NCBI RefSeq assembly: GCF_056746865.1
Contig: NZ_JBWKMP010000003.1
Direction: 5' to 3' (one strand)
Origin: a plasmid
DNA: 64,000 nucleotides
Shown here: piece by piece, positions 38,608 to 55,966 of the stretch
Layout of the letters: the number at the start of each line of letters is the position of its first letter
Numbering within the stretch: the first letter of the stretch is position 1
The notes under the pieces: generated by a model
Database searches by the model: none
Seen by the model: the letters and a program-made list of their open reading frames with translations, nothing else
What the model was told of the DNA's origin: nothing
Made by a program: the position numbers and the translations under genes

Positions 38608-38828
38608 TATCGGTTAACCAGTTCCTTGTTGGTGGAGTCCAGGGTGTCAAACAGGGATGCAAATTCAGCATCCAGCGCCGCTTTTTTGTAGGCTTCGAAA
38701 GTAGCCTTGCTGACAATTACTGCTGGCTCACGGCCTCTGCGGGTGATTTCAACCTCTTCCCCGGCTTCAACATTGTTGAGCACTTCAGAAAGGTTGCCAC
38801 GCGCGGTACGGAAGTTAATGGATTGCAT
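38607..38828 (-). CDS. phd: Phd antitoxin
   Basis: [73 protein letters not shown] matches P1 Phd as recalled; stop overlaps the doc start. Confidence 0.92.
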
Positions 38829-38900
38829 AAACACCTCGTGTACTCGTTATGTGTACACAATTATAAACTTCACAGGCATAAAGCACCAGCACTTTGCAGC

Positions 38901-39290: not shown

Positions 39291-39413
39291 AGCGTTTTAC
39301 CTCAATGATACTGTTTATTCATACAGTATACATTGAAAAGGCATAGTTTGTGAAAGCGGGGTTTGTAGGCGCGCCACGCTGGGGGCTAATCACATTTCTC
39401 CCCCATCTTGCCG

Positions 39414-39665
39414 TTATTTTTTTGGTGCATCCTCGTTCTGATACACCGGATCGCTCCCTTTTGGCAACTGGAGGCTTAACTGCCGATAGTGCCGTAACCG
39501 TTCCATGAAATAGGTGCGCAGATTCTCTGGTTGCTCGCGGGCTACCTGTTCAGCTATGACAGGTATGTTCAATCGCTCTTTGTACGCCACACCGCTGGCA
39601 GCCAGATCAACGTTAACCTTATCCCGTTCTTCCTGACTTTTAGCTGCAATATTCCAGTCGCTCAT
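39414..39665 (-). CDS. hot: Hot-like homolog of DNA polymerase III theta subunit
   Basis: [43 protein letters not shown] aligns with E. coli HolE. Confidence 0.8.
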
Positions 39666-39667
39666 AT

Positions 39668-39940
39668 TTAAGGCTCACATTTCCAGATGGTATTCTGAAC
39701 ACCCGAACCGGGCGCAAGATTAGGGTTGGCGTTCGCGCTATGCTGATATACTGCTTTAGACTTCCCATATTGCTGACAGGCTTTATCTGCGGTTTTTTGC
39801 AGGCTATCCAGGCCATACCAACCATCTGACTGTATGCTTACCTTTTCACCGTCGTTGTATTGCACCATTGCACACCCAGATATAGCCAGTATCGCACCGA
39901 CAATAACGCTTTTCCATAAAACTCTATGCAACATATACAA
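39668..39940 (-). CDS. Putative lipoprotein
   Basis: Signal peptide with lipobox LAISGC. Confidence 0.55.
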
Positions 39941-39979
39941 AAATCCCCTCTGTGAATTGAGGGGATTTTAGCATGGTGA

Positions 39980-40615
39980 TCAGATATCGGCCTTATTCGG
40001 AATTTTATCAGCCACCAGCGGCAATAAAGCCTTCGCCATTTCATGAACCAACATGGCATCAATGACGCCTAGCGTATGGCCCGGTTTAATGTTTAATGCC
40101 GCCTCAAGATGACTCCTTTCCAGGCCGCTTTTCTCGGCTTGTTTATGACGATCTGGTGTAATAACTTCGCCCAAAACGCGGCTAATTTTTTCTCGTAATT
40201 GCTGGGTGCCAGCACACTTGATCGCTGTATCGTGGAGACGGTTAACCAGTTCGCGATAAACATGCGGCTTAATGCGGATACGTTCACCGGTGACGCCCTT
40301 TCCTGGCGCTGGCACCGAACTATCCGGATAGTTGCCAGCCTCGTAAGCTACCCGCAGCCAGTGCATGAATGTTTCAGTGGACACACAACCACAGTCCACA
40401 TCGATTTTTCCGCGTTGCTGTTCCAGCCACTGCTCAAAATTCAATCTACACGTATTACTTTCATGTTGCTCTTTTTGTCTCAAGGCCAGCATCTGCTGGG
40501 CTATTTCCAATACTTCATCTGCCGTATATCCAGCACCGTGACCATACATTTCGATACGGGAAATAATCTCTGATATACGCTCTTCAGTGATTCTGGTCAT
40601 TTCTTTTTGCGCCAT
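39980..40615 (-). CDS. Hypothetical protein sharing a ~45-aa segment with the C-terminus of the DUF4406 fusion
   Basis: KPHVYRELVNRLHDTAIKCAGTQQLREKISRVL versus APHIYRELVNALRDIAAVYHGTEQLRERLAHTI in 52539-53150. Confidence 0.5.
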   Translation of the reverse strand: MAQKEMTRITEERISEIISRIEMYGHGAGYTADEVLEIAQQMLALRQKEQHESNTCRLNFEQWLEQQRGKIDVDCGCVSTETFMHWLRVAYEAGNYPDSSVPAPGKGVTGERIRIKPHVYRELVNRLHDTAIKCAGTQQLREKISRVLGEVITPDRHKQAEKSGLERSHLEAALNIKPGHTLGVIDAMLVHEMAKALLPLVADKIPNKADI

Positions 40616-40968
40616 TTCTTTTCACATTCCTTAGTCCATTTTTCAATGTTCATTTTGGCAATATCAGTCATTCCATCACCTAAGAAATACTTTTTCCGGT
40701 ATGTCTTGCACTTAAACCACACTACAACAGCCACCAGCCAGAAAATAAAAGGCCATACAGCAATACCAACGACAGCCGCGATAAAGCCCAATAGCCATAA
40801 ATGAAGCTCTCCAACTTCTGTTTCCGGCAATATTCTTAAAGAATTAAACAGCAGGCTGAACGAATGGTCGTATGCATTGGCGGTATAAGACATGCAATCC
40901 ATATAATTAAAGTCATAGCCTGCGGCTGCCGCCCATAATGGGCGGTCAAGAAAATGTTTTAGTGTCAT
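40597..40968 (-). CDS. Hypothetical membrane protein
   Basis: Two or three hydrophobic helices, basic C-terminus. Confidence 0.45.
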   Translation of the reverse strand: MTLKHFLDRPLWAAAAGYDFNYMDCMSYTANAYDHSFSLLFNSLRILPETEVGELHLWLLGFIAAVVGIAVWPFIFWLVAVVVWFKCKTYRKKYFLGDGMTDIAKMNIEKWTKECEKKWRKKK

Positions 40969-40977
40969 TATATAAAT

Positions 40978-41271
40978 TTAAGGTTCAGACCAGTTATCTT
41001 CAATAGCAATGCTTAATCTTTGTAGCCATTCTGCTAATTTCAGCATTGCTTCTCTTTCGCTTAAACCACGAGGAAAATCATCAAGCGAAATTGTTGGCTT
41101 GAATCCCCCGCAATTATCCATTTCAACTGTCAGATTTTGTTCCAGCACGGTATTTCTTACGCGGCTATTGTGCCGAAGCAAATATACTGAGCGTGATTTA
41201 TTGGTTTTGTGGTCTAGCTTATATTCGGTAAGTATCATCTGGCTTTTGCCATGATTATTACCTCTCCACAT
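40978..41271 (-). CDS. Hypothetical protein (start trimmed to the internal ATG with RBS)
   Basis: ATG (MWRGNN) preceded by tgaggtaag; the longer 129-aa ORF-track version overlaps an upstream small ORF. Confidence 0.4.
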   Translation of the reverse strand: MWRGNNHGKSQMILTEYKLDHKTNKSRSVYLLRHNSRVRNTVLEQNLTVEMDNCGGFKPTISLDDFPRGLSEREAMLKLAEWLQRLSIAIEDNWSEP

Positions 41272-41278
41272 ACTTACC

Positions 41279-41401
41279 TCACTTAATAAAACAACTCCAT
41301 GCGTAGTTGATGATTTTTTCCCACGTAATATAAATCTGCACTCCGGCAGTAAAACCAAAGCCAACAATTGCTGAAAAAATCAAAACATTTACTTTTGACA
41401 T
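41279..41401 (-). CDS. Small hydrophobic peptide (40 aa)
   Basis: MSKVNVLIFSAIVGFGFTAGVQIYITWEKIINYAWSCFIK; below the ORF-track cutoff; stop lies next to the start of 40978-41271. Confidence 0.3.
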   Translation of the reverse strand: MSKVNVLIFSAIVGFGFTAGVQIYITWEKIINYAWSCFIK

Positions 41402-41449
41402 TATAAATTTTCTCTCGGTGTCGTAGGTGATAGCACCATAATTGATAAT

Positions 41450-41683
41450 TTAGTGAGTTAGCAGTTCCATTTTTTTGATGATTTCCGCATGAGCATCATC
41501 GTTATCAACACTTAGCTCGTTTAATGCTTCTCGCACTACATCAACTTCTTCAGGCTGAAAGAAGTCGTCGCGGTAATCACCAAATAGAACCGAAACCAGC
41601 CTGCCACCAGCAACATCAAGATTGGCGCTAACAGGTGGCTCTTTGCCATCCTCAAATTCGACTACAAAAGTTAATTTTCCCAT
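41450..41683 (-). CDS. Hypothetical acidic protein (77 aa)
   Basis: ORF with conserved operon orientation. Confidence 0.45.
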   Translation of the reverse strand: MGKLTFVVEFEDGKEPPVSANLDVAGGRLVSVLFGDYRDDFFQPEEVDVVREALNELSVDNDDAHAEIIKKMELLTH

Positions 41684-41759
41684 CGTTACCCCCAGAAGAT
41701 AAAAATAGCGGCAATCGCCATAGCTACGCCTACAATCGCAAATGCTTCAGGCCAGCTTA

Positions 41760-42017
41760 TTACCTCACCTCCAGTCTCCATACCGCCTGACCAATCCGGC
41801 TGGCATGGGTATCTTTGGATACTGTTCCATCTTTAGCCAGCTCCATAAGAATTTTGCGCAAATCTGCCGAACGCCATTCTTCATCAGGAAATTCCTTCTC
41901 CATTGCCAACCGCAGATTCCAGGTTGCTATCGTGAATGGATATTCCCCGCCGAGAGCTTTCTCTTGCAGGGCAGCACGGGAACGTATCACCTGCAAAACC
42001 TTCTCTTTTACATCCAT
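41760..42017 (-). CDS. Hypothetical protein (start set at the ATG overlapping the upstream stop)
   Basis: Translational coupling with 42017-42715. Confidence 0.4.
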   Translation of the reverse strand: MDVKEKVLQVIRSRAALQEKALGGEYPFTIATWNLRLAMEKEFPDEEWRSADLRKILMELAKDGTVSKDTHASRIGQAVWRLEVR

Positions 42018-42715
42018 CATTTTGCCTCCTGCGGCGGTTCTGGTAGCGGCATCCAGTGTGATGGTATCCACGACGCACCAGGTATTACCCACCCATCATT
42101 AGCGTCAGGATGCCCCGGGATGTAAGTCGCCCATTTCATTCGCCAGTCACCTTTCCTGTCAAACTCCCTGGCAACAAGAACGGCTGTTTTGGTATCCGGC
42201 ATTCGCTCACTACAGCTTATCCAACTATCCGGAATTACCGGATAGTTGCCCGACAGCTTGTTCAACTTGTAAGTCTGGCTTACAGGTTTGGCACCATGAA
42301 GCATGGCGTCGCTCCGCTCTATGCCATCCAGCGCGATTCGCAGTGCCTGAATTGTGGTAGAGCTATCGTTTGGGGCTATTCCATATCGCTCGAATACAGC
42401 TAAATGGTTGCGCATAATCTCAGGCGTAAGCTCTTTGTAAGCATAAGCAAGAGACTCTGATGCATTATCCGGCACAACCGACGCAAGCGCGGCAGCATAA
42501 ACAGGAATAACGTCCACTTGCTCTTTATTGCTTTCATCCGTTAAAGCCCAGAATAATTTCCCGGCCGGATGTTTGAAAATATAAGCAATTGGTTCTGCTT
42601 CCAGCGATGCCAGAGCAATTTCATACGACCGTCGCTCAATATTGTCTCGCACGTCCAGGCTGCTGATACGCTCTTTGATTTCTTTAATCAGTTCTTTGTC
42701 GGTTAAAGTGGTCAT
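42017..42715 (-). CDS. DUF551-like protein
   Basis: C-terminal ...DGWVIPGASWIPSHWMPLPEPP resembles the DUF551 C-terminal motif common in enterobacterial prophages. Confidence 0.5.
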   Translation of the reverse strand: MTTLTDKELIKEIKERISSLDVRDNIERRSYEIALASLEAEPIAYIFKHPAGKLFWALTDESNKEQVDVIPVYAAALASVVPDNASESLAYAYKELTPEIMRNHLAVFERYGIAPNDSSTTIQALRIALDGIERSDAMLHGAKPVSQTYKLNKLSGNYPVIPDSWISCSERMPDTKTAVLVAREFDRKGDWRMKWATYIPGHPDANDGWVIPGASWIPSHWMPLPEPPQEAK

Positions 42716-42725
42716 AAATTATGCC

Positions 42726-42962
42726 TCAGTTGTATCCGATTGGATTAACCGCAACAAGAACGCCATCCGCGAACAAATCTTTAATGAGGTGTTCGCTCGG
42801 CTCGCCTTTTTCGTACTCTTCAATAAGGTAAGTGTCTCCATCTTCATTGATATAAACAGGAAGGATGGAGCCGTTGATAAAGTAGGTTCCGTTGTTATCG
42901 AGGATTTTTGCCTCGGCGATTTGTTTTTTGGTAAAACGCTCTTCTTTTGTCAAAGTTGCCAT
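42726..42962 (-). CDS. Hypothetical protein (78 aa)
   Basis: Internal ATG start MATLTKEERF. Confidence 0.4.
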   Translation of the reverse strand: MATLTKEERFTKKQIAEAKILDNNGTYFINGSILPVYINEDGDTYLIEEYEKGEPSEHLIKDLFADGVLVAVNPIGYN

Positions 42963-42963
42963 A

Positions 42964-43182
42964 TCAGCTTTCCTTATATGGGTTGATTTTGTTGTGCAAT
43001 GTGTTGAACGACGCCCATACCACGTCGTTATACAATTCAATAACTGGCTCAATTATTTTCCCGATTCCCCATACCAGAATTAACGGGGATATCGGTATCA
43101 TCAACACGATAAACAGAATGAGAAACAGAAATTCTGTTATTCGGCTTCTTTGCGGATATTCTTTTCTGAATAATGTTGGCAC
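42964..43182 (-). CDS. Small membrane protein (GTG start)
   Basis: RBS aaggagag 4 nt upstream of GTG; hydrophobic core FLFLILFIVLMIPISPLILVWGIG. Confidence 0.35.
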   Translation of the reverse strand: MPTLFRKEYPQRSRITEFLFLILFIVLMIPISPLILVWGIGKIIEPVIELYNDVVWASFNTLHNKINPYKES

Positions 43183-43183
43183 A

Positions 43184-43405
43184 TCACTCTCCTTTGCCCG
43201 CAGCTTTCGCCTGCTCTTTAGCAAGTCGCTCCGCTTCTCTGAAATCCCAATCCACTCGATGTGCGATATCAATTGCAGAACGCACGGTTCGTTCAATTAG
43301 CGTATCCAGGTTATCAATTGTCATTGCCATATCTGGATTTCGAGATAAAATCTCCGCCCTCTGAATCTGCCAGTTGTTACAGGTTTCAAGTAATGAGTTA
43401 GCCAT
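43184..43405 (-). CDS. Hypothetical protein (73 aa)
   Basis: Internal ATG start MANSLLETC. Confidence 0.35.
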   Translation of the reverse strand: MANSLLETCNNWQIQRAEILSRNPDMAMTIDNLDTLIERTVRSAIDIAHRVDWDFREAERLAKEQAKAAGKGE

Positions 43406-43406
43406 A

Positions 43407-43595
43407 TCACTCTCCTTTAGTGCGCAAGTGGTTTTTCCAGCGGTTTTGCGCCGCGCTGGGCTTTTTGCAAAAACCACAATCCATCATCCCGTAATATTTC
43501 ATCAACCCCATCCGTCGGTTGCTGAGTCTCACCCACTGCCAGACGCCAGGAGCGTTTCTACGAACTAACAGAATCTTTGCTTTACGGTTTTTCAT
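43407..43595 (-). CDS. Small basic protein, copy 1 of a tandem pair (MKNRKAK...)
   Basis: Shares N-terminus MKNRKAK and the DNA block ttacggtttttcat with the upstream copy. Confidence 0.3.
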   Translation of the reverse strand: MKNRKAKILLVRRNAPGVWQWVRLSNRRMGLMKYYGMMDCGFCKKPSAAQNRWKNHLRTKGE

Positions 43596-43768
43596 CTTAC
43601 AGCGTACCCTTTCTTCCGCCTGTTCTGTGACGCAGTAGGCTTACGCTTTGCGGCAAAAGCCACCTGACCAAATGGATGGAGTACCGCTATCTTATGGTTG
43701 CTAATAACCAGCTCCACCACACGCACAGGTCGCTGTAAAAAAAGTCGTTTTGCCTTACGGTTTTTCAT
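43592..43768 (-). CDS. Small basic protein, copy 2 of a tandem pair (MKNRKAK...)
   Basis: 58 aa, stop overlaps the start of copy 1 (ATGA). Confidence 0.3.
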   Translation of the reverse strand: MKNRKAKRLFLQRPVRVVELVISNHKIAVLHPFGQVAFAAKRKPTASQNRRKKGYAVR

Positions 43769-43940
43769 CGCTTTGCTCTCCTGCGTCTCTTTGCTGCTCG
43801 TCGTGCCGCTGCAATACCGGTATGGCGGCGCTTTGGTGCCGGGATGATGTTGTCAGCCATCAGGACATACGGCTTTGCAATTAGCGCAGAAGCCCAAAAA
43901 CGAGTCGGGTACGGTAACAAGCCGATACATGCCACACGCA

Positions 43941-44693
43941 TTACTCACCTCCTTTGATGCGAATGCCTGCGGCGCGGATTGCAGCGATGACTTCAGAAAC
44001 TTTGTATGCCATTACCGTTTGGTAATCATCGTGAAAATCTGTTCGATGAAGCATGCTGCTACGTTCCGGGAGCGATATTTCCCGAGCATCCAGTTCCTTA
44101 ACGCGTTCCTCCAGTTCGTAGACCCTGCATTGTTCTCTATCATCAATCAGATATACCCCAAGACATTCGCTTTCTACCCAACCGCCAAAATCATGATCGT
44201 AACGCTCACATGAAAACTCACCGTCACCGTCCTTTGTTGGAATGGTGTAACTATCTAATGGGCCACCATATGTCGGCACATTTCCCAATGTTGGATGCTC
44301 AATCCACATGAAAAATGCACGTCCGGTTATTGGGCAAATATCTGGCCGCCATTGGTTACGAACAGCCTTGGTTTCGGATAATTCTTCAGCGTGTTGTTTT
44401 ACTTCCTCAAGCTCAACTCTCAGCTTCCCTACCGTTAGCGCAATATCCTCGTTCTCCTGATCGCGGCGTTTTATGTATTGCTGGTTTCTTTCCCGTTCAT
44501 CCAGCAGCGCCAGCACGGTTTCTGGTCCGGTCAGAAATTTGAAGGCGTTGAGCGCATCAATATCCACACCGTAATCTTTAAGTTCCTGTTCACTTAACAA
44601 ATCATCATCAGCTGGCAACATTAACAGGCGTTCCATTGCTGGAATTGCACGTTCCGCCGCCTCACGCAGTGCCTGGTAATTAATTTCGCTCAC
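43941..44693 (-). CDS. ead/Ea22-like family protein
   Basis: Contains [37 protein letters not shown] and C-terminal [10 protein letters not shown], shared with 50855-51529. Confidence 0.55.
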   Translation of the reverse strand: MSEINYQALREAAERAIPAMERLLMLPADDDLLSEQELKDYGVDIDALNAFKFLTGPETVLALLDERERNQQYIKRRDQENEDIALTVGKLRVELEEVKQHAEELSETKAVRNQWRPDICPITGRAFFMWIEHPTLGNVPTYGGPLDSYTIPTKDGDGEFSCERYDHDFGGWVESECLGVYLIDDREQCRVYELEERVKELDAREISLPERSSMLHRTDFHDDYQTVMAYKVSEVIAAIRAAGIRIKGGE

Positions 44694-45352
44694 TGGTTGC
44701 CTCCTTTGCGAAGCTGGGCAGCAAAGTCAACTAACCACTCAGTCATTTCAACCTTCCCTACCAGGTCGGAACCAGGGTGCATACAGCAATCACTCTGCGC
44801 CGCTTTGAAATCCTTACACTCATATTCTTTGGCCACCAGATTTTTTGCAGCTTCTATAGCAGCATCCACCCCCTGCGCCCGCACTTCAGCCAGAAAAGCA
44901 TCGGTAGCTGGAGTTTCGCTGTGGTGTAGGGCATCGTTGATAATCATTGCAGCAACACCAGCCTGCCCTGCATCCGTGACCGACACATGCTCAAGAGTTA
45001 CGGCCATTGCGTGTTTCAGCCCAGCGTTCTCTGCCACCAGCGCAGCGATATTAGTCTCAAGCTCTGAAATTCGGCACGTGGCATCAATATTTGTGTCCTC
45101 CAAGCACTTAATTTCACCAAGCAGCTCCAGTGCAACCTTTGGGTTGAACGCGGCAACATGACGAGCGTTGTTCTCTGCATTTTTCTGTCCATCAAAGCCG
45201 GTCCATTTGATAACGTCTTCACATCGTTCATCACCGGGCGTGTGCACCGCATAAGTACCAGTATCCGTCGAAATAAATGCGACCCATTCGTCTGGTGTTG
45301 CCTTTTCTGCCGCCTCACGCAGTACCTGATAGTCAATTGTCATTCTCGCCAT
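44690..45352 (-). CDS. ead/Ea22-like family protein
   Basis: [14 protein letters not shown] block and C-terminal FAAQLRKGGNQ shared with paralogs. Confidence 0.5.
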   Translation of the reverse strand: MARMTIDYQVLREAAEKATPDEWVAFISTDTGTYAVHTPGDERCEDVIKWTGFDGQKNAENNARHVAAFNPKVALELLGEIKCLEDTNIDATCRISELETNIAALVAENAGLKHAMAVTLEHVSVTDAGQAGVAAMIINDALHHSETPATDAFLAEVRAQGVDAAIEAAKNLVAKEYECKDFKAAQSDCCMHPGSDLVGKVEMTEWLVDFAAQLRKGGNQ

Positions 45353-45966
45353 CCTTCACAGTTGTAATCACTACAGCCTTCAAAATCATATGGGCTGTAC
45401 TGCCAGGTTATTTTTCCGCAATGCGGACAATTCCAACGCACCTTCCCGCTTCGCGACTTCTTTCTTCTGTTCTGCTCTTTCAACCAGTCAGGCATGATCA
45501 AACCTGCGCCCTGAACCATTGTTCTGCGGTTAAAGTTATTGATATTGAACGTCCGGCGCTTTGCTGCATCAGCAATGGAAAATGGCAACCAAACTATTCC
45601 TGGTTCGTTTTTGTTGGCGACGCTAAAGATGGTCGCTTTACTGAAGTCATCTGTTGGCAATCCACCGTGTTGAAGCCAGTAAACATCGTTGCCGTTCCAG
45701 CTACCTTTTTTGTAGGCCACATACGCAGTGCAATCTGACTCAATCAGGCTTTCTGTAGGGATGTACTGGCAATCAACGTGCCACACAGCCATTGCATCCA
45801 CGCTATCAGCGCAAACAGGCTGATCGATATCTCGCCCACAATTCCAGGCTTTTTGGGCTTCTTCCAGCGTGTAAACATGAGCGCGATCGATATCAGAGCT
45901 ATAACCATTGCCGTTATGGCAATGGAATGAGGCGTTATTACCCACAGTTTCACGCAAGCACATCAT
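45340..45966 (-). CDS. Hypothetical protein with a C-terminal zinc-ribbon-like Cys cluster
   Basis: CPHCGK...C..C motif; start trimmed to an internal ATG. Confidence 0.4.
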   Translation of the reverse strand: MMCLRETVGNNASFHCHNGNGYSSDIDRAHVYTLEEAQKAWNCGRDIDQPVCADSVDAMAVWHVDCQYIPTESLIESDCTAYVAYKKGSWNGNDVYWLQHGGLPTDDFSKATIFSVANKNEPGIVWLPFSIADAAKRRTFNINNFNRRTMVQGAGLIMPDWLKEQNRRKKSRSGKVRWNCPHCGKITWQYSPYDFEGCSDYNCEGWRE

Positions 45967-45980
45967 GTAAAAACGGTTAC

Positions 45981-46220
45981 TCACTGGTTGCCTCCTTGGC
46001 GGAGTTGCGCTGCGATGCATGAAAAAAAAGACTCCCGAGTGTGACAGTTAAGAGCTGGTGCGAACGCCGCGTTAAGAACGGCGGCATCACAGCCGTCATC
46101 AATATAGAGCGCAATTTTTTTCTCCAGGCGCGCTTTGGCTTCCTGCAACTGCATACCCCGGCACGCACGCGGGATATAATCAGCAATTTGAGCGATAGCT
46201 TTTTCGTTCTGTTTAAACAT
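45981..46220 (-). CDS. Small protein carrying the Ea22-family C-terminal motif (AAQLRQGGNQ)
   Basis: Motif shared with 44690 and 49817. Confidence 0.4.
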   Translation of the reverse strand: MFKQNEKAIAQIADYIPRACRGMQLQEAKARLEKKIALYIDDGCDAAVLNAAFAPALNCHTRESFFSCIAAQLRQGGNQ

Positions 46221-46416
46221 GCTTCACCTCGATAGGCTTGATGGTGTCTAACAGCAGTCGGCGGCGCGTATTTTCTGCAAAATGGCGGCGTCCAGTTTCT
46301 TTGTGGTAAAACTCGTTTTTGCCGACGACCCACATCCGCTCTGTTTGGTGCAGTTTTTTTACCTTCGGGCCATCTTTGGTGATCACGGTACCGGTATGGG
46401 TTTTTACGATTGTCAT
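46213..46416 (-). CDS. Hypothetical small protein
   Basis: 67-aa ORF. Confidence 0.3.
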   Translation of the reverse strand: MTIVKTHTGTVITKDGPKVKKLHQTERMWVVGKNEFYHKETGRRHFAENTRRRLLLDTIKPIEVKHV

Positions 46417-46499
46417 GCCACTACCTATTCGAACAGATGAACGAGACAGGCCGATGCTCGTCCACCTGAAAAACTGACGATTTGATGCATACTCACGGT

Positions 46500-47228
46500 T
46501 TATTCCTGAATGCGCTTAAACTCGATTACCCACACCCAGGGATTAGCGTTCCAGCTTTCTTCACCATAGATGGATTCCCACAGGCGCTGGAACGCAACCT
46601 TGGCCATTGCGAAATCCCCCTTGGGAGTAAGGAATGTTCCCGGGTGATCAGGAAGCAAACTTCCAGCAGGCGGAACGCCCTCAGCCCTTGCATCGCATTC
46701 GCTGATATCGTTCAACCGTTCAACGCGCACGTTGGTAATTTCCAACAGAATGCGTGATGCCCATCGCGGCATGTGAATTGATGGACGCCACCCACCATCA
46801 AACTTTTCATTCACAGTGTGAGGTTTCCAGTCGGCATCATCGGGTATCGACCATAAGCCGTAATCACCAGGTTTTTGCTCGCAACTGGCCCGATAAATCC
46901 TTGCTGCGTTCTTCTCATCGCCACGACAAAGGTTGTCGTTCCAGTCCACACTGCAACCATCCTCATTGCCTAATATCGCCCATGTTTCACGAACCCAAAT
47001 TCGATCGCCGACGATACCAAATGGGCAATTGAAAACACTGCTTACACCATCAGCCCCGTACCACTGAAAACCTGCACCAATTTTTCTAACCATCACTGGT
47101 GCTTCTGGACCAACTTCCGCAGGCTGATTTTTCATTATCCGCCGCGTCTGCGTTTTCCTTCCTTCGAGGATGGCCCGGACCATCTCATCGTTAAAAATCA
47201 TCCCGCGTTCTTTCATTTTTTGATCCAC
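46500..47228 (-). CDS. ASCH-domain-like protein (start may be the internal MIFNDEMV)
   Basis: EMVRAILEGRKTQTRR resembles the ASCH GxKxxExR signature. Confidence 0.45.
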   Translation of the reverse strand: MDQKMKERGMIFNDEMVRAILEGRKTQTRRIMKNQPAEVGPEAPVMVRKIGAGFQWYGADGVSSVFNCPFGIVGDRIWVRETWAILGNEDGCSVDWNDNLCRGDEKNAARIYRASCEQKPGDYGLWSIPDDADWKPHTVNEKFDGGWRPSIHMPRWASRILLEITNVRVERLNDISECDARAEGVPPAGSLLPDHPGTFLTPKGDFAMAKVAFQRLWESIYGEESWNANPWVWVIEFKRIQE

Positions 47229-47232
47229 TCCA

Positions 47233-48228
47233 TCAGTTATTGAACGTGATCACTCCGCGCTCGATGGCGAAGTCGAAAAGCTGGTTGGCGGCTACGTAAA
47301 GGCGTATGCCATGTGCTTTTTCCCATGCCCGGACATCGTTTTCTGCGCTTCTGGCGCATTCATCGCAAAGAGGAACGGCCCAGCGATCGTGTTCGTTTAA
47401 CGAGCGGGCGCGGTACATGAACGGGTGATTAACTTTGCCTCCGCATCCGATGCACGGACGAGAAATCACAAACCGGAGATAAGCCGGGCTTTTACCGAGA
47501 ACCGCTTTTGGTCGGCGCATATACAGCAGGCCGGAATCCTCATCTACAGACAGGTTGACGATCTGCTCTGCGGTTATGTCCACCAGCTCACGGGTGCTGT
47601 GCTCCCAGGTGATATCCGATTCTTTCAGTGTGCCGGTAGGGATTTCCTGTTTTGGCTGACAAAATGCAATGCGACCGGCTTCATCTGGCAGCTCGTCTTT
47701 CAGATTCCGGCGAATGGCCCAAAAAGTGAGTTCAACCATGCTCAGATCGCGTTCTGGCGGTAGTTTTAACTCGCTCGCAGCCCAGTTCATAACCCAGTTG
47801 GCACGATTCAGGGATAACTGGTCATCCAGCTTGCCGTACCCCTTCATCATGTATTCCGCATCATGCTTCCAGCACAGGCGAACGGCAGAGCCGTTATAGA
47901 AATGAGTGGTTAGCTGGTGGCTGCAATCGCGCTTATCGTGCGCCTGGCAATCGTGGATATTGGAACTTACCCAATGAACAAGCGAATCTTCACCGCCTAA
48001 TGCGTTAAATACGCGCTCGCTTTGAAAAAATGCTTTCAGAGACTGGTTGGCAACCAGCGAATAGTTCAGATCCACTACGCCATCTGGCGTGTTTTCAGCC
48101 TGTTCGCGCGGAAGTGGAGAGATAATGAAACGGCGACCTGCGCCAATGTAGTTGCTGGTGGGCTTGTCTACCGGAAAGACAGCCACACCAGCTCCGTTTA
48201 CGAAATGAGGTGTGATTATTGCACTCAT
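47233..48228 (-). CDS. Hypothetical 331-aa protein with C-terminal Cys-rich motifs
   Basis: CIGCGG...C..C pattern; no confident family. Confidence 0.45.
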   Translation of the reverse strand: MSAIITPHFVNGAGVAVFPVDKPTSNYIGAGRRFIISPLPREQAENTPDGVVDLNYSLVANQSLKAFFQSERVFNALGGEDSLVHWVSSNIHDCQAHDKRDCSHQLTTHFYNGSAVRLCWKHDAEYMMKGYGKLDDQLSLNRANWVMNWAASELKLPPERDLSMVELTFWAIRRNLKDELPDEAGRIAFCQPKQEIPTGTLKESDITWEHSTRELVDITAEQIVNLSVDEDSGLLYMRRPKAVLGKSPAYLRFVISRPCIGCGGKVNHPFMYRARSLNEHDRWAVPLCDECARSAENDVRAWEKAHGIRLYVAANQLFDFAIERGVITFNN

Positions 48229-48270
48229 AATGTATACCGACTCTGTTTTGTTCCGAGCGGTAAAATAATA

Positions 48271-48300
48271 TGTTAGAAAATTAAAATCAATATTCTAACA
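48271..48300. promoter_or_regulatory. Operator palindrome TGTTAGAAAATTAAAATCAATATTCTAACA
   Basis: Inverted half-sites of the dispersed motif, upstream of the minus-strand operon. Confidence 0.55.
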
Positions 48301-48332
48301 CGGTTTTGAGTGCATAAACGATGTGTTCAGGA

Positions 48333-49019
48333 TTACGGCTGGCCTCCCTTCACCTGCTTTAGCGTCAGATTTCCGCAAAAAACCGCGCCAGTGTCTATGT
48401 AGTGCTGGTTCCAGAAAGATTTCGGGCTGTTTACTGGCGTATGCCCGAAAATAAAGCTATCTGCACCAGTGATCATTCCACCAACACCATCAACCGCGTC
48501 ATAAAATCGCTCACGCCGCCAGGTAACATTGAGATCGCTAACAGGTTTACCAAACTGGTATTCGTTATCAGGATAGTCGGCATGGGCTATAACGATAGTT
48601 TCATGCCCGGTGTTCAACTCAATGATATAGGGTAAACGTCTTACCAGCTCCACCAGCGCCCTGGCTAATATTTCCCGATCAGCGTCCAGCATGAAGAACC
48701 ATTGGCCGCCATTCATTAGCCAGTTATTCACGTTGCCTGCGGGGCTTAACGCATCGATCATTAATCGCTCGTGGTTTCCCATAACCGACCGAAACCAGGG
48801 CATCTGCAATAGCTCCAAGCATTCAACATTTTCGGTGCCGCGATCGATAAGGTCGCCAACCGATATCAGTAAATCCTGTGTCGGGTCAAAGTCCACACGA
48901 TGAAGTTCAGACATCAATCTGGTGTAGCAACCATGCAGATCACCAACAACCCATATGTTTCTGTAGCCTGAACCATCAATACGGCCATATAAATTCACTT
49001 CATGCAGCGCCTGGGTCAT
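48333..49019 (-). CDS. Ser/Thr protein phosphatase (calcineurin-like metallophosphatase)
   Basis: GDLHGC ... GDLIDRG ... GNHE motifs. Confidence 0.75.
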
Positions 49020-49327
49020 GCGGCAACCTTCTCCCGCAGCCAGATACAAACCGGGCCATCTTCAGTGTCATGAATAGAGCCAACAAACCATCCTTCGCCC
49101 TCTGGTCGCTCTGGTTCCCAGGCGGCAATATCGGGACCATCTGCGTCCAGATTAAAATGATCTTCATCCATACTGCGAATAGTCCACTGAAGATTATTAT
49201 CCTTCATCCAGGCGTCAAATTCCTCAGTGGATATATATTCACGACCTGCGCAAAACTTTTCATATTCCGGATGTGTCCAGCAGCCATATTCATCACGTTC
49301 TACCGGCATTTCTTTAATGATGCTCAC
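49016..49327 (-). CDS. Hypothetical acidic protein
   Basis: Coupled ORF. Confidence 0.45.
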
Positions 49328-49548
49328 TCTTCATCCTCCAAGTCGGCAACGGCCTCCATCACATCAGAACCGCGAATAACCTCAAAAGCACGGCAGGCCA
49401 TTTCAAACACCTGTTGTTCTTGCGGATGCGGTGACTCCCAATACTTAAAACCAGGTCGATGCTCGTAACCCAACATGGAATAAAAATCGCCAGCAAGTTC
49501 AATCGCTGCATCAACAAGTTCGCGATTTGTCATCGTCTGTTCTGTCAT
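49324..49548 (-). CDS. Hypothetical protein
   Basis: Coupled ORF. Confidence 0.45.
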   Translation of the reverse strand: MTEQTMTNRELVDAAIELAGDFYSMLGYEHRPGFKYWESPHPQEQQVFEMACRAFEVIRGSDVMEAVADLEDEE

Positions 49549-49820
49549 TTTGTTTTCTCCTGTCTGAACATCACTATCATCAGGTCGCCTTTTGTCGCTA
49601 TCCTGGCTGTTGTACCTGGTTCAATGCGGCTAAGCTCAAATGCGTCATAGAACGCTTCTAATGCCTTCTGGCGTAGTTCCTGTTTGCGCCGTTTTTTCCA
49701 CTGTTTTAGGAAAATGGAACCCAGCCATCGCCATGTACGGGACATGATGTAAAGCCAACCGAGAAGTGCCAGACCGGTATTTAGGAGCGTATCGATCGTT
49801 ATTGTCGTGTCGATATTCAC
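49545..49820 (-). CDS. Hypothetical membrane protein
   Basis: N-terminal TM segment. Confidence 0.45.
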   Translation of the reverse strand: MNIDTTITIDTLLNTGLALLGWLYIMSRTWRWLGSIFLKQWKKRRKQELRQKALEAFYDAFELSRIEPGTTARIATKGDLMIVMFRQEKTK

Positions 49821-50584
49821 TGGCTGCCTCCTTTGCGAAGCTGGTCGGCGAACAAACGTACACTAGACGCTTCACTGCGTAGAAACTTAACGGCATAATC
49901 AAAACCACCTCGTTCTGCGTCGTCTGCTCCGTTGTCGAGGTTATCTGCGTACATCTCTACCCCCTGCGCACGTACTTCAGCCAGGAAAGCATCGGTGGCT
50001 GGGGTATCAACACGGATACTGTCGCGCAAGATGAAAAATGCATTGAGCATTCCAGTCTCTGGCACTTCATCCTGATGCTTCTCATACGCATCAAGAGCCT
50101 TCATCATCTCAGCTCCGAATGGTTGAGGGTGCACAGACTTCAGCTCCGCATTCTCCGCCGCCAGCACCGCGCGTTCGCTCTCCAGTTCTGTAATGCGCCG
50201 TCTTGCAGCATCCAGTTCAATCGACAATTTTCCCAACTGCTCTTTATGCTTCTTGTATTCCTGATATGCGTGCCAAGACTGACCTTTGCGCACACTATCC
50301 GTGATATCAGTAATCTGTTCTGGTGTTAGCGTGGTCAGTGGCTGTGCTGGGAAAATCAGCACTTTCCCAGCATCCCAATCAAAACCCACCTGAATTGACT
50401 GAACCTCAACTGATGGTGTTGAACCGATGCGACCAGGCGAATGAACAACGATCGTTACATCCATATCGCGACGATGGCTGTGGTTGTTGGACAAAATACG
50501 ATTCACCAACTCCGAGAATTTGGAAAATTTCATGCTGATTCCCTTTGCTCTTCCTGGATAATGTTGTTGCAATCTTTCACGCAC
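49817..50584 (-). CDS. ead/Ea22-like family protein
   Basis: [14 protein letters not shown] block and C-terminal [11 protein letters not shown]. Confidence 0.5.
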
Positions 50585-50853
50585 TCGTTGCAGATGAAAA
50601 CGTTGTCCCCGGCAATTAACTTTTTAACGGTGTGCTGGGATTTGTTGCAGAAGCTGCAATAAAGCGTTGGACTGGCTGATATGGATGGTGCGCCAGATGT
50701 CAGCCGCGCGATGTCGTTCTTGCGACGCAATATCACACGGCTGCACTCGACCAGCATCTCCGGGGATATATCCTCCTCCGTGGCGAGCGCCTCCAGACGT
50801 TCGAGCAAGCGAAATACTTTTTCCTGGGTGATTGCAGAATGCGATGTGGTCAT
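50530..50853 (-). CDS. ClpX-type zinc-finger domain protein
   Basis: [36 protein letters not shown] matches the ClpX N-terminal zinc-binding domain pattern. Confidence 0.5.
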
Positions 50854-50854
50854 C

Positions 50855-51529
50855 TCACTCTCCTTTGATGCGAATGCCAGCGGCACGGGAGTCATTCCAT
50901 CGCTTTACTTCTTCACGAATTACGTCAATGCATTCTTTCGAATCCATTAGGTAATCTTCATCAAAAAGCCTTTCCTGTTCGTTTTCTATCGCAACAATGA
51001 TTGCTTCAACTAACTTTTGTGCCTGAGAACCACTTTCTAACTCTGCAATGCGCTTCTCTGCGGCTTCCAGCTTCTCGCGCATATCGTCAACGTACTCGAC
51101 CAGAGATCCGCCAGCAGGAATTTCGCACTCCTCGACCAGTTGGAAGTAGATATCAGCTGCGGCCCGTGTGTTGCTATGCCTAGCGTCGCCCATCTCACCT
51201 TCACGAAGAGCATCGCGTTCGGCGGTAAGATTGGCTATTTTGCTGTCTTTGCCTTCAAGCTCAACGCGCAGCTTCCCTACCGTTAGCGCAATATCCTCGT
51301 TCTCCTGGTCGCGGCGTTTTATGTATTGCTGGTTTCTTTCCCGTTCATCCAGCAGCGCCAGCACAATGTGTGGCGTTATCAAGGACTCAAATTCGGCAAC
51401 AGCTTGCTCACCTCGCTTGTAATTCTTAATCCCACCTAAATCTTTCGCGTTCTGTGCCGCCTCACGCAGCGCCAGTGTGTCGATGTCGATGTCGATGTTG
51501 CTCATTGTGCCTCCTCGATTTCGTCCCAT
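50855..51529 (-). CDS. ead/Ea22-like family protein
   Basis: Same conserved block as 43941-44693. Confidence 0.55.
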
Positions 51530-51735
51530 TCCACCCAGGCATTCTCTCCATCAGCATCGATTTCACCTTTGTGACCGCATTTGGAACAAACGGCCTCATC
51601 ACCCGCCCACAAAGAATCTTTGGTTACCGACCATCCTGTTACCCTGGCTTTGCCGTGCTGGCACCTAGGGCAATCATCAAGCCATTCGACTTCGACCGTT
51701 GAAGGACCAAATCCATGTTCAGTTCGGATGCTCAT
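51502..51735 (-). CDS. Small zinc-ribbon protein
   Basis: CPRCQHG ... CSKCGHKG. Confidence 0.4.
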   Translation of the reverse strand: MSIRTEHGFGPSTVEVEWLDDCPRCQHGKARVTGWSVTKDSLWAGDEAVCSKCGHKGEIDADGENAWVEWDEIEEAQ

Positions 51736-52235
51736 GACTGAACTCCTTTGCGAATCTGTTCCGCCCATTCTTCAAGGGATTTCTCCGCATATTCACCGGA
51801 CAGGCCATCAATCGGATGCGGTTCATTAGCCAACTCTTCTTTCGCTGACAAAATCATGCGTGTAACGTCGAAAACTTCACGCAAAGACTTATTGATAAAT
51901 CCGTGATTGAACGCAGCAGCAAGACGGCTTGCGGTGTAGTTAATCCCCTCGTTGCGTGCCTCCGCACGTATTTCAGCCAGGAAAGCGTCGGTGGCTGACA
52001 TATTTCCTGTTGCCTTCATGGCCTTCAAAATAACCAGAACGCCATCTTGCCCAACCAACTCGGAGATAATCTCAGTGTTGTCGCCAACAACCTCACAGAA
52101 TGCCTGAACAGCTTTACGAGCAAGTGCATTCTCCGCCGCCAGCGCCGCGCGCTCTTTCTCAAGTCGGGAAATTTCCGTTACATACTCAGCGTTACGCTCT
52201 GCCAGTTGTGCGGGCGTTAAACCTTCAGACTTCAT
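51732..52235 (-). CDS. ead/Ea22-like family protein ([12 protein letters not shown] block)
   Basis: Paralog of 44690 and 49817. Confidence 0.5.
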   Translation of the reverse strand: MKSEGLTPAQLAERNAEYVTEISRLEKERAALAAENALARKAVQAFCEVVGDNTEIISELVGQDGVLVILKAMKATGNMSATDAFLAEIRAEARNEGINYTASRLAAAFNHGFINKSLREVFDVTRMILSAKEELANEPHPIDGLSGEYAEKSLEEWAEQIRKGVQS

Positions 52236-52542
52236 GCACTCTCCTTTCGAAATAAACGTACTGATTAATCATGCCCAGGGGCATTTCGAACTTTTCTGCG
52301 ATCTCACGGCGGGGAACGCCACACTGATGAAGCTGCCGCGCCAGCTCTATATCGCTCTGCCGGTATTTGGCTGACTGGTGAAAGTCACCTTTCAGAATCA
52401 TGCTGATCCGCAATTGCCGCGCTTTAGTCCTGACAGCACCACCGGTACGCCCGATCAGTCTCCCAATACCCTCGACTGTCATAGTCCCGGCGCACTGGCG
52501 GAGTATCATGATTTCTGCCCTTCCCCATCCCCGCCAGCTCAC
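52225..52542 (-). CDS. Small HTH protein (sigma-70 region-4-like)
   Basis: C-terminal HTH-like RREIAEKFEMPLGMINQYV. Confidence 0.4.
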   Translation of the reverse strand: MSWRGWGRAEIMILRQCAGTMTVEGIGRLIGRTGGAVRTKARQLRISMILKGDFHQSAKYRQSDIELARQLHQCGVPRREIAEKFEMPLGMINQYVYFERRVHEV

Positions 52543-53150
52543 GCAGAACTCCTTCTAACCAAAAGAACGCCATCTTCAGAAACAACGTTGCAGGACTTCA
52601 GGTAATTCATTGCCTCTTTCGGTAATGGATTCTTTGGATCGGCGCTTGCCAGGGATTTCGATAACCTCATGATAAATTTGATCATTACCTTCTGACGGAG
52701 CTTGTGCTCATGGGATGCAGACAGGTAATAGGAAATGGTATGGGCTAAACGCTCACGAAGCTGTTCTGTGCCGTGATATACAGCAGCGATATCACGCAGT
52801 GCATTGACCAGTTCCCGGTAAATATGCGGAGCAACCTGGCATTCAATGTTGGTTGGTGACTCATAAATTACATTCAGCCCCAGCTTTTGAGCCAGCTCGT
52901 GCTCTGCACGAGCGCCAACTGATTCCTCCCACCCCTTGAGCAAATAGACCGCATTAGCCGAACGCACCATTGCAAGGCAAATATCCATGTATTCGCTCTG
53001 GCAGAGGCCAGCAGGTAACAGCGCCGGATTCAGAACAATATGCCCTACCTCCATCAGCTCTTTTGCTTTCGAAAAAAACGCTGTGCGGTTGTAGTCGGGA
53101 TAACCAGTCATCGGACCCGCGATGTAAATTTTCATAATGCGTTTTGACAT
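52539..53150 (-). CDS. DUF4406 (nucleoside 2-deoxyribosyltransferase-like) domain fused to a C-terminal domain shared with 39980-40615
   Basis: MKIYIAGPMTGYPDYN ... LLKGWEESVGARAEHELAQKLGLNV fits DUF4406; C-terminal APHIYRELVNALRD segment is paralogous to 39980-40615. Confidence 0.5.
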   Translation of the reverse strand: MSKRIMKIYIAGPMTGYPDYNRTAFFSKAKELMEVGHIVLNPALLPAGLCQSEYMDICLAMVRSANAVYLLKGWEESVGARAEHELAQKLGLNVIYESPTNIECQVAPHIYRELVNALRDIAAVYHGTEQLRERLAHTISYYLSASHEHKLRQKVMIKFIMRLSKSLASADPKNPLPKEAMNYLKSCNVVSEDGVLLVRRSSA

Positions 53151-53345
53151 CAAAGTTTCCCCAGGAACGTTACGCAAAAGTTAATGAGAGCAAAGAGTTC
53201 AATGCCCAGCTCAAACAACGCCAGGACAGTGAAAAACAGGGCATATAGCAACCCAATTTCTGTACCGGATTGCTGGTGGATTGCACTTATTGCGACAAGC
53301 ATCATGACCTCCTGATATAGCGTCTGAAAAAAGTATCTTCATTTT

Positions 53346-53377
53346 GTGTTAGAAAATCAATTTTGATTTTCTAACAC
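53346..53377. promoter_or_regulatory. Perfect operator palindrome GTGTTAGAAAATCAA-tt-TTGATTTTCTAACAC
   Basis: 15-bp arms are exact reverse complements; sits between the divergent minus-strand operon and the ref-like gene. Confidence 0.6.
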
Positions 53378-53421
53378 TTTTGATCAACCATAGCGGCGAT
53401 GTAGACAAACCGGGTATTTCT

Positions 53422-53997
53422 ATGAAGCAAAGCTATTGGGAGAAACAGACACAAAAAGCCCTGCAAAAACTGGCTGATCCGAAATGGCGGGAGGAACAAA
53501 GGGCAAAGCGTCTTCAGCAAGCTCAACGCCAGCAGCAGCGTGCGCGAGAAAAAGCCGCATCGCCTGAATATCGGCAAAAGAAAATTGAAAAAGCGAAGCA
53601 ATATGAACAGCGAAGAAAAGAGAAGGCCGCTTCTGCTCCTGTCAAAAAAACTCGCGCGTCACGCGGCCTGAAAGGCAGAACACTCACAGCAGATGAGCGC
53701 CGGATACAAACTGCCATCGGTGCTCTCCCCTGCATTGCCTGCCATATGCACGGACAGCATAGCCCTGTGGTATCCCTGCACCACATCTTCGGGAGAACAG
53801 CAGAAAACGCGCATAAATACGTCCTCCCTTTGTGTAAATGGCACCATCAACACGCAGCGCCAGCAGAGATCCGCGAGCAATACCCCTGGTTGGTTCCTGT
53901 TCATGCTGATGGAAAAATAGGCGGCAAAGCAGATTTCAGGCGGCACAATGCTGATGAAATGACGTTGTATCAGATGGTGACTGAATTAATAAATTAA
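53422..53997 (+). CDS. Ref-like HNH-type nuclease with a basic disordered N-terminal region
   Basis: Lys/Arg/Glu/Gln-rich N-terminal ~80 aa followed by Cys/His cluster CIACHMHG ... HHIFG ... CKWHH; same architecture as P1 Ref as I recall it; start could be TTG at 53380. Confidence 0.45.
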   Translation: MKQSYWEKQTQKALQKLADPKWREEQRAKRLQQAQRQQQRAREKAASPEYRQKKIEKAKQYEQRRKEKAASAPVKKTRASRGLKGRTLTADERRIQTAIGALPCIACHMHGQHSPVVSLHHIFGRTAENAHKYVLPLCKWHHQHAAPAEIREQYPWLVPVHADGKIGGKADFRRHNADEMTLYQMVTELIN

Positions 53998-54012
53998 TTT
54001 TCTAACATTTTA
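53990..54012. promoter_or_regulatory. Operator-like motif AAATTAATTTTCTAACATTTTA
   Basis: Dispersed motif family member. Confidence 0.45.
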
Positions 54013-54496: not shown

Positions 54497-54602
54497 GAAA
54501 ACACACAGTTGCGCCCTGGCATTATCGTGGGGTATATTTCTACGGCACCTTAGAAAAACGGGTGCCGGGATTGGAACCCCGGATAATGTCAAAGGCGACA
54601 CA

Positions 54603-54624
54603 GACGCCGAACGCGTCTTTTTTT
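54603..54624 (+). terminator. Rho-independent terminator
   Basis: gacgc-cgaac-gcgtc followed by ttttttt. Confidence 0.6.
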
Positions 54625-54639: not shown

Positions 54640-54809
54640 ACAGCCATACTTAGCGTTTAGCTCAGAGATCAATGGTAGTGCTGGCTGGGCTGCCGAAAGG
54701 CAGGCCGGTTCCCTTTGACGCCGGTAGTTCCAACCCAGTCAGTGCTACCGCCATTGAGATTGGAACCTCACGCGGTAGCTCCTTAACTTAGTCAAAGGAG
54801 GCTGCCAAT
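54640..54809 (+). ncRNA. Candidate c4-like antisense RNA / structured leader of the immI-like module 2
   Basis: ORF-free ~170 nt with long-range complementarity (tcaatggtagtgctg / cagtgctaccgccattga; gttccaa / ttggaac) directly upstream of the icd-like RBS. Confidence 0.35.
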
Positions 54810-55025
54810 ATGGCTACTATCCCTACCCCAACTCATTCTGAATTTATCTGGCGTTTCTATTCCTGCCAAAAACACCTTTATATCTGCGTAATGGCTGCTA
54901 CCGAAGCAGAGGCGCGCTCATACCTTCCCGAAGAACCCTGCATTTTTGCTGCTCGCTTCACTCTTGATGCGATGGAGATCCTCAATTACTGGAATCTGCC
55001 AATGAACTGCGTGGAGGTGCACTGA
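54810..55025 (+). CDS. Icd-like small protein (immI-like module 2)
   Basis: 71 aa; paralog of 12851-13075; stop overlaps the ant-like start. Confidence 0.55.
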   Translation: MATIPTPTHSEFIWRFYSCQKHLYICVMAATEAEARSYLPEEPCIFAARFTLDAMEILNYWNLPMNCVEVH

Positions 55026-55966
55026 TGAATCTGTCCATCTCTCAAAAAGCGACAATGACCAGCATTGAGATCGCGGAACTGGTAGGAAGTCGCCCAGATA
55101 GTGTGAAGAGAACTATCGAAACACTGGCTAAAAAGAGTGTGATTCAATTTCCACAATCTGTGGAAATTGAAAATAAACAATCAGTTGGCCCTCGTCGATT
55201 TTCCAAGGCTTACATCTTTGAAGGCGAACAAGGAAAACGAGACAGCATCATTGTCGTCGCGCAGCTCTCTCCGGAATTTACCGCCCGGCTGGTGGACCGC
55301 TGGCGCGAACTGGAGAATGCCCGGGTACAGTTAAAATCCAAAGCCGAAATCCTGGCCGAAATGGCGCAAATGCATCTTGAGCATGAACGCCGGATCAACG
55401 CCGTTAATGCCCAGGTAGCCGAAGTATCGGCACAAGTGTCCAGGGTCACCGAAACACTTGAGCAGATCAAGAAAGGCAATATTCCAGAAGGCTACATTGG
55501 CTATCGCCAGTTGGCGGCAAAATGCGGCCTGACTGAAGCCAAATGCCGCAACCTGGTCAACGCTTACCGGATACCCACTGATACGCATGAGTTTTTAACT
55601 CCCGACGGTTTGCTTGCGCGACGCTCCATTGTGGCCCTGGCCCCCTTCCGGAAAGCCTTTAAGCAGGTTATGTCGGAGGCAGAACCACGTAACAAACGCT
55701 GGTATCATCCCAGGATGGGGCTATTTCAGGCCATTCACCATCCTGTGCCTGAAAGTCCAAAGGCAAACCTGTCGTTGCATACCGCCAGAGAGAAGATTAA
55801 AACAGGGTATGCAACCGTATGCCGTCGAGCATCCTGGCCTGAAAGTGTCTGGGTATGGCCCGAAAGAGGCTCACGGAAAAACTGGCGCACCATTCGCGAC
55901 GGCAAGATCTGTGCGATTGATTTACAGCCAGAAGATGTAGCAGCGACCGACTGGATTGTTAGTTAA
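55025..55966 (+). CDS. Antirepressor-like protein (Ant/Rha-KilA-type N-terminal region plus C-terminal DUF2829-like domain), intact copy
   Basis: 313 aa; N-terminal and middle regions paralogous to 13075-13782; C-terminus CRRASWPESVWVWPERG ... DVAATDWIVS fits DUF2829. Confidence 0.65.
   Translation: MNLSISQKATMTSIEIAELVGSRPDSVKRTIETLAKKSVIQFPQSVEIENKQSVGPRRFSKAYIFEGEQGKRDSIIVVAQLSPEFTARLVDRWRELENARVQLKSKAEILAEMAQMHLEHERRINAVNAQVAEVSAQVSRVTETLEQIKKGNIPEGYIGYRQLAAKCGLTEAKCRNLVNAYRIPTDTHEFLTPDGLLARRSIVALAPFRKAFKQVMSEAEPRNKRWYHPRMGLFQAIHHPVPESPKANLSLHTAREKIKTGYATVCRRASWPESVWVWPERGSRKNWRTIRDGKICAIDLQPEDVAATDWIVS

Follow-up and report, generated by a model that had tools for sequence, protein, structure and literature searches.

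In phage P1, ref encodes a RecA-dependent nuclease and lies close to cre. A 64,000-nucleotide stretch of plasmid DNA (hereafter referred to as the window) contains a gene that was initially annotated as a Ref-like nuclease, located behind a perfect 32-bp operator palindrome and separated from cre by about 19 kb of accessory genes. This raises the question of whether the gene encodes a genuine Ref orthologue, what the palindrome in front of it controls, and what the distance to the recombinase gene represents.

The reading that I favor, with a probability of roughly 0.85, is that of the Ref nuclease of a D6-like phage-plasmid, placed behind a double C1 operator that would silence two divergent promoters. 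It builds on the homology, the catalytic residues, and the recurrence and placement of a sequence motif, all of which are observed, and it predicts RecA dependence, C1 binding and the two promoters. The coordinates of the features are listed in Table 1.

Table 1. Features of the ref locus and of the related sites in the window.
Feature	Position	Strand	Description
ref	53422..53997	+	191-aa Ref-family HNH nuclease, RecA-dependent by homology; stop codon included
Ref protein, N-terminal part	residues 1–84		basic, disordered-type
Ref protein, C-terminal part	residues 85–191		nuclease core
Operator-like bivalent palindrome	53346..53377	.	GTGTTAGAAAATCAA / TT / TTGATTTTCTAACAC; half-sites at 53346 and 53363
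Candidate ref promoter (weak)	53363..53391	+	-35 TTGATT (53363–53368) in the right arm, 17-nt spacer, -10 AACCAT (53386–53391)
Candidate leftward promoter	53332..53360	-	-35 TTGATT (53360–53355) in the left arm, 17-nt spacer, -10 GATACT (53337–53332)
Leftward early-type operon	48333..53305	-	starts 41 bp from the palindrome; ends with ppp (48333)
Single (monovalent) operator-like half-site	53994..54008	+	TTAATTTTCTAACAT; overlaps the ref stop codon; 2 mismatches, PWM 29.0
Doublet	48270..48301	.	15+2+15, between ppp and pdcB; half-sites at 48270 and 48287
Doublet	24695..24726		15+2+15; half-sites at 24695 and 24712
Doublet	28380..28411		upstream of lpa; half-sites at 28380 and 28397
Single half-sites	11287, 12492, 22395, 23450, 24845, 32839, 34235		
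D6-type C1 repressor gene	31787..32824	-	345 aa; presumed to bind the operators
rox site	33021..33052		exact match, upstream of the Dre orthologue
Dre-type tyrosine recombinase gene	33205..34233	+	called cre in the initial annotation
dre-ref interval	34234..53421	.	19.2 kb
isrK/a1b1-like element	54532..54623		canonical C4 module
C4 RNA	54668..54755		canonical C4 module; 77 bits
icd	54810..55025		canonical C4 module
ant	55025..55966		canonical C4 module

The ref gene and the element that carries it

The open reading frame listed for this locus spans positions 53380–53997 of the plus strand, and opens with a TTG codon. This start was dropped in favor of the ATG at 53422, based on the end-to-end alignment of the resulting 191-residue product with D6 orf87, and on the gene that PGAP calls in E. 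coli MINF_7C plasmid 4. No obvious Shine-Dalgarno sequence precedes this ATG.

The encoded protein is 100% identical to RefSeq entry WP_024191207.1, named "Ref family recombination enhancement nuclease", and 92% identical to the Ref protein of phage D6 (orf87, YP_009914764.1). Identity to P1 Ref is 54% over 175 residues, and reaches about 75% in the core. The structure of P1 Ref (PDB 3PLW), the only one solved for a Ref protein, is matched with an E-value of 3e-52, and the protein is also recognized by PHROG 2321, "Ref-like RecA filament endonuclease" (E 2e-81, profile positions 13–183 of 186), and by Pfam PF16786, RecA_dep_nuc (7.7e-36, residues 89–190, model positions 2–102 of 103). An NCBIfam HMM search of the protein gave no match, and its PGAP name stems from a route other than an NCBIfam HMM. 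These matches confirm the Ref-like identity that was first proposed, and the alignment to P1 Ref, suggested at the time as a check, shows clear similarity.

The Cys and His residues of the core, including the active-site histidines of the HNH (His-Me finger) fold (P1 H134 and H153) and the metal-binding positions, are all conserved: P1 Ref residues C96, C99, H112, H113, C130, H133, H134, H136 and H153 align with C104, C107, H120, H121, C138, H141, H142, H144 and H161, all nine being identical. In P1 Ref, the H134/153A double variant is nuclease-dead (PMC4713147, PMC4330346), and serves as a control in PMC4713147. The 107 C-terminal residues, outside the disordered zone of a charge-hydropathy plot, include 11 His and 3 Cys. 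The 84 N-terminal residues possess 27 K/R for 9 D/E, with neither His nor Cys, and lie within the disordered zone (H 0.288, for a boundary of 0.49); the corresponding 76 residues of P1 Ref have 25 K/R and 9 D/E (PMC4330346). The two-part architecture initially described, with a basic disordered N-terminus and a Cys/His-rich HNH-like C-terminus, is therefore upheld at the level of composition. As seen in the alignment to 3PLW, the N-terminal halves are far more divergent than the cores.

Judging from its sequence, the gene is thus an ordinary, already annotated copy of a P1-type Ref nuclease. In P1, Ref stimulates RecA-dependent recombination and the SOS response, and favors lytic growth (PMC4330346, PMC3973344, PMC4713147). 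RecA dependence has been demonstrated for the proteins of P1, P7 and phiW39 only (PMC4330346; biochemistry also in PMC3973344), and by analogy is expected of the D6-like orthologue. By homology with P1, this protein would cut DNA only where RecA filaments are bound, in D-loops and SOS filaments, its tail binding DNA and its HNH core cutting the strands inside the RecA filaments. Orthologues of Ref that differ in their N-terminal tails hold some interest, both as programmable nucleases guided by RecA and for phage-antibiotic synergy (PMC4330346, PMC4713147).

Sequence comparison places the window in a D6-like phage-plasmid of Escherichia, which belongs to the P1 supergroup and is distantly related to P1. 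Collinear blocks of 80–91% nucleotide identity to D6 are found over most of the 64 kb, with 86% identity in the 1.2 kb around ref, and membership of the D6-like group is further indicated by synteny, by a Dre orthologue at 94%, by an exact rox site and by a C1 homologue at 80%. A 22 kb segment (positions 33000–54999) aligns with MINF_7C plasmid 4 along 70% of its length, at 97.9% identity, where the ends are conserved and the center is different. At a nucleotide identity of at least 80%, ref is present in 112 PLSDB plasmids of ∼90 kb, which are non-mobilizable, and is annotated as Ref in nearly all of these.

The palindrome and its recurring half-site

The palindrome is located 45 bp upstream of the ref ATG, within a divergent intergenic region of 116 bp (35% GC). 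Its two arms (53346–53360 and 53363–53377) are 15 nt each, 100% complementary, and separated by TT. Across the 64 kb, it is one of only two perfect inverted repeats of at least 15 nt with a spacer of at most 12 nt, the other being the rox site, with which it ties as the best short-range inverted repeat of the window; none of 200 shuffles yielded such a repeat, which places it well outside what chance would produce. The arms are perfect, but the TT is not self-complementary, and the 32-bp span is symmetric at 30 of 32 positions. It is accordingly a 15+2+15 arrangement, not the perfect 32-mer initially stated.

I compared the palindrome across five relatives. Four of them have an unaltered left arm, and pS143-4 has a single base change in it. 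In the right arm, no relative departs from TCTAA and four of the five have TCTAAC, while the flanks diverge. The D6 right arm is degenerate (TTGAATATCTAATCA, with mismatches at 5 of 15 positions), which indicates that perfect symmetry is a sub-lineage trait and is not required. The perfect copy of the right arm is found in the sub-lineage of the window, corresponding to 11 of the 112 plasmids at an identity of at least 95%.

The half-site, TTrATTTTCTAACAy, is found 17 times in the window when allowing up to 3 mismatches, for 2.15 occurrences expected, and when 9-mers are ranked without bias, its core TTTCTAACA comes second in enrichment, behind Chi only. Four pairs of half-sites share the same 15+2+15 geometry (Table 1). 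The sites map upstream of repL, the second icd/ant module, pmgM, pmgS, lpa, c1, the first gene after dre, pdcB/ppp, ref and the immI-like region. The one at c1 (32839–32853) is 15 nt away from the start codon of the C1 homologue, and the one overlapping the end of ref, shortly before the immI-like region (C4-like RNA, icd, ant), is conserved in all five relatives save for one A/G position. A matrix derived from the sites of the window detects high-scoring sites at the homologous positions of D6, which has an extra doublet upstream of hrdC-dmt.

This distribution recalls the C1 operators annotated in the P1 record (Oref, Omat, Oc1a-e, Oppp, OpmgRa/b, OpmgT and Olpa), which serve many of the same genes. 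In P1, kilA/repL and dmt are also reported to be under C1 control (PMC4713147). The layout around ref is alike as well, with P1 Oref upstream of the gene and Omat overlapping its 3' end, and with a doublet upstream and a single site over the stop codon in the window. The annotation of the two D6 GenBank records contains no operators, and nothing relevant to a D6-type operator motif, or to C1 operators in D6-like elements, was found in the full-text literature covered, which leaves out the D6 genome paper (Gilcrease & Casjens, 2018).

The presumed cognate repressor is the C1 homologue of the window, which is 80% identical to D6 C1 and 21% to P1 C1. Its match to the NCBIfam model phage_rep_C1 is weak (24 bits, for a cutoff of 500), and in related plasmids PGAP names it "hypothetical protein", so that the immunity repressor of a widespread plasmid group is effectively unannotated. 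No match to the P1-type operator consensus is present in the window at up to 3 mismatches, and P1 immunity was ruled out on this basis. The best alignment between the D6-type and P1 operator consensus sequences is in the same orientation around TCTAA, with 11 of 17 positions identical.

Because the half-site recurs, the doublets share their spacing, the placement is P1-like, and the cores are conserved while the flanks diverge, the palindrome is most likely a bivalent operator for the element's own D6-type C1, covering two divergent promoters. The initial description of the palindrome as an operator thus gains support by inference, through the recurrence of the half-site where P1 has C1 operators.

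Both candidate promoters were read by hand from the sequence, and their hexamers score 3–4 of 6. A sigma-70 consensus scan called no promoter on the plus strand before ref, and placed the leftward candidate below threshold. The D6 counterpart of the ref -10 is AATCAT, and at the leftward position D6 has TTGATT, a 16-nt spacing and TAATAT. The block TTTTGATCAAyCATAG is conserved in four of the five relatives, with two bases different in pS143-4, while its flanks are not. The leftward operon encodes a 51-aa hydrophobic ORF, DUF4406, a DNA-binding protein, ead/Ea22-like and DUF4752 proteins, and the ppp phosphatase, based on the ORFs, the annotation of D6 and MINF_7C plasmid 4, and PHROGs.

Each arm of the palindrome holds an outward-facing TTGATT, resembling a -35 hexamer, and in the proposed arrangement a single repressor complex would shut off both ref and the divergent early operon in the plasmid-prophage state. 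Upon induction, both promoters would be released. The third operator, a single site at the end of ref, would act on the immI-like operon that follows (C4 RNA/icd/ant). If this is correct, one doublet at ref represses both this gene and a 5-kb early operon at once.

More tentatively, the palindrome could be one of at least 16 operators of a perhaps undescribed D6-type C1 regulon, and could have originated when the block at 80–90 kb of P1 moved and inverted into the dre-ref gap, bringing P1-type Oref and Oppp sites back-to-back. The weak right half would then have been perfected in one sub-lineage, making repression of the toxic Ref nuclease tighter. I regard this scenario as possible, but rather doubtful.

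A palindrome of this type could instead function as RNA, with a hairpin acting as an intrinsic terminator, or as an attenuator of the kind proposed for P1 ref. It appears terminator-like in a scan, with a 14-pair stem and a loop of 4 followed by TTTTGATC, and its predicted fold is stable (-17.6 kcal/mol, z -6.5). P1 ref has a GC-rich hairpin and U8 directly before its ATG, and "attenuator-antiterminator control" of the gene is claimed in the title of Windle et al. (1988), cited in PMC4713147. However, the hairpin is not conserved among relatives, with -4.6 kcal/mol in D6 (z +0.6), -7.3 in AR_0119 and -9.9 in pS143-4, while the half-site cores are kept; the terminator or attenuator function was rejected for this reason. 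Only 4 of the stem pairs are G-C, and the run of T is short. Upstream, the genes lie on the opposite strand and thus provide no plus-strand transcript to terminate, and the same motif is found at nine other places as single sites that do not form hairpins. A role as a hairpin is therefore improbable.

It is likewise quite improbable that some other regulator than the C1 homologue, such as a Cro/Coi-like or host protein, binds the motif, or that the palindrome is a recombinase or replication site. The link between C1 and the motif is itself drawn from sequence, the arms have the same length as those of rox, and H-NS binds the AT-rich regulatory region of P1 ref (PMC4713147), which the low GC content of the intergenic region here resembles. 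Nonetheless, the sites mirror the C1 regulon of P1, including the site in front of c1, and the best alignment of the motif with the P1 operator keeps the same orientation about TCTAA; the window has a single Dre/rox pair, with no second recombinase adjoining the palindrome, and H-NS needs no specific 15-nt sequence. For the nuclease itself, a generic HNH or homing endonuclease, which lost or never had RecA dependence and resembles Ref only at the level of the fold, could be invoked from the small set of proteins for which this dependence was shown (PMC4330346), and from the divergence of the N-terminal halves. The identity to P1 Ref along 175 residues and in the core, the full-length match to the PHROG Ref profile, and an architecture, charge pattern, regulatory layout and phage family that are all the same as for Ref make this very improbable. 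A Ref nuclease under a double C1 operator thus remains the preferred reading.

Ref is characterized, and both the exact protein and the D6 orthologue are already named, in RefSeq and in the D6 annotation respectively. What is added to these records is only a prediction for the D6-type repressor, in the form of an operator consensus with a map of its sites, which would provide concrete sites for a heteroimmune C1.

The dre-ref interval and the region downstream of ref

The gene initially identified as cre encodes a protein that shares 94% identity with D6 Dre and 42% with P1 Cre, and with the exact rox site upstream, the recombination system of the element is, by sequence, Dre/rox and not Cre/lox. 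The reported distance of 19 kb is accurate, with 19.2 kb between the recombinase stop codon and the ref ATG; the corresponding distances are 13.4 kb for D6 and 0.6 kb for P1. The proximity of the two genes in P1 was also correctly stated, as c8 alone separates the end of cre (1467) from the start of ref (2077).

The interval had been proposed to define an accessory insertion, and its comparison by blastn to D6, MINF_7C plasmid 4 and P1 supports a plastic center, but not a simple insertion. The two ends (34.2–37.1 kb and 47.1–53.4 kb) are 99% identical to MINF_7C plasmid 4. The center, at about 37.1–47.1 kb, is variable over ∼10 kb, and consists of a mosaic of ead/Ea22-like, DUF551-type and unknown phage genes, differing even between close relatives. 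However, the gap is already 13.4 kb long in D6, and part of it is P1 backbone: homologues of P1 pmgT/U, hot, humD, phd-doc, pdcB and ppp are found in the interval, inverted relative to P1, where these genes form the block at 80–90 kb, on the other side of lpa-pacAB-c1-lox. Since it combines an inverted P1 backbone block with a variable center, the interval is not simply an accessory insertion at a P1-like junction. It does behave as a plastic region, but D6-like elements have this gap as a trait of their lineage, and it can already be seen in the published D6 genome. The gap in these phage-plasmids can thus be described as a rearranged P1 backbone block with a variable core.

Two segments of the interval, 38237–39667 and 46534–47218 (phd-doc-humD, hot, pmgT), are 94–99% identical to P1, while the neighboring DNA is D6-like, at 80–90%. 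This points to a recent exchange between P1-type and D6-type phage-plasmids. A separate segment of 1039 bp (37110–38148) is absent from MINF_7C plasmid 4, at a junction that is otherwise 98–99% identical. It belongs to an ORF on the plus strand (37085–38191, 368 aa), which falls in PHROG 5902, a family of unknown function, and weakly resembles terminase large subunit/ATPase-nuclease proteins.

Downstream of ref, a second C4-like antisense RNA is found at 54116–54195 on the plus strand, ∼120 nt from the gene. It scores 42.3 bits against Rfam RF01695, for a gathering score of 45 (E 5.5e-7 on a stretch of 331 nt), and the region is ∼99% conserved among the window, D6 and MINF_7C plasmid 4, more than ref itself. 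On its 3' side, GTGGAACAG is complementary to its UGUUCCAAC loop, and is followed by an AAGGAG Shine-Dalgarno sequence, then by ORFs of 29 and 55 residues (D6 orf86 and orf85; region 54228–54496). The arrangement resembles a C4/target module, placed in tandem with the canonical module (Table 1). The window possesses two icd/ant-type antirepressor modules, at 12492–13782 by repL and at 54810–55966 by ref, with an operator-like site before each, and D6 likewise has two (orf18/19 and orf82/83).

No word is more over-represented in the window than Chi (GCTGGTGG), with 44 copies for 1.7 expected, or one per 1.45 kb. One copy is located at 53272–53279 (plus strand), and the first 13.1 kb contain none. 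Richness in Chi, which has also been reported for P1, is suggestive in an element encoding a predicted RecA-dependent nuclease.

Comparison with P1 and D6

The Ref protein has the same two-domain layout as that of P1, with a basic N-terminus of ∼80 residues, predicted here to be unstructured, followed by an HNH core, and in both cases it is encoded by a lytic/early gene of a plasmid prophage. In contrast, the N-terminus is 8 residues longer here and lacks Cys11, and the gene adjoins immI, where P1 ref adjoins mat. The GC-rich hairpin that precedes the ATG of P1 ref has no counterpart before this gene.

The two predicted or known operator systems share many scattered, asymmetric sites, some of these inverted doublets, at c1, lpa, repL, pmgR/S, ref and immI, and have the TCTAA core in common. 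They differ in their details. P1 operators are asymmetric 17-mers (ATTGCTCTAATAAATTT) in monovalent and bivalent forms, while the consensus here is TTAATTTTCTAACAy, and the P1 repressor has 283 residues for 345 in the C1 homologue. In P1 Oc1ab, two 17-mers are arranged tail-to-tail with a 6-bp overlap, whereas the doublets of the window are head-to-head, with 15-nt arms 2 bp apart. The operator upstream of P1 ref is monovalent, and that proposed here is double, palindromic and of another sequence.

The closest counterparts are D6 and the D6-like E. coli and Salmonella plasmids that encode WP_024191207.1, where ref is similarly flanked by the DUF4406 operon on its left and by C4/icd/ant on its right. 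D6 has the same left operator arm and downstream operator, but a different central gene set in the dre-ref interval.
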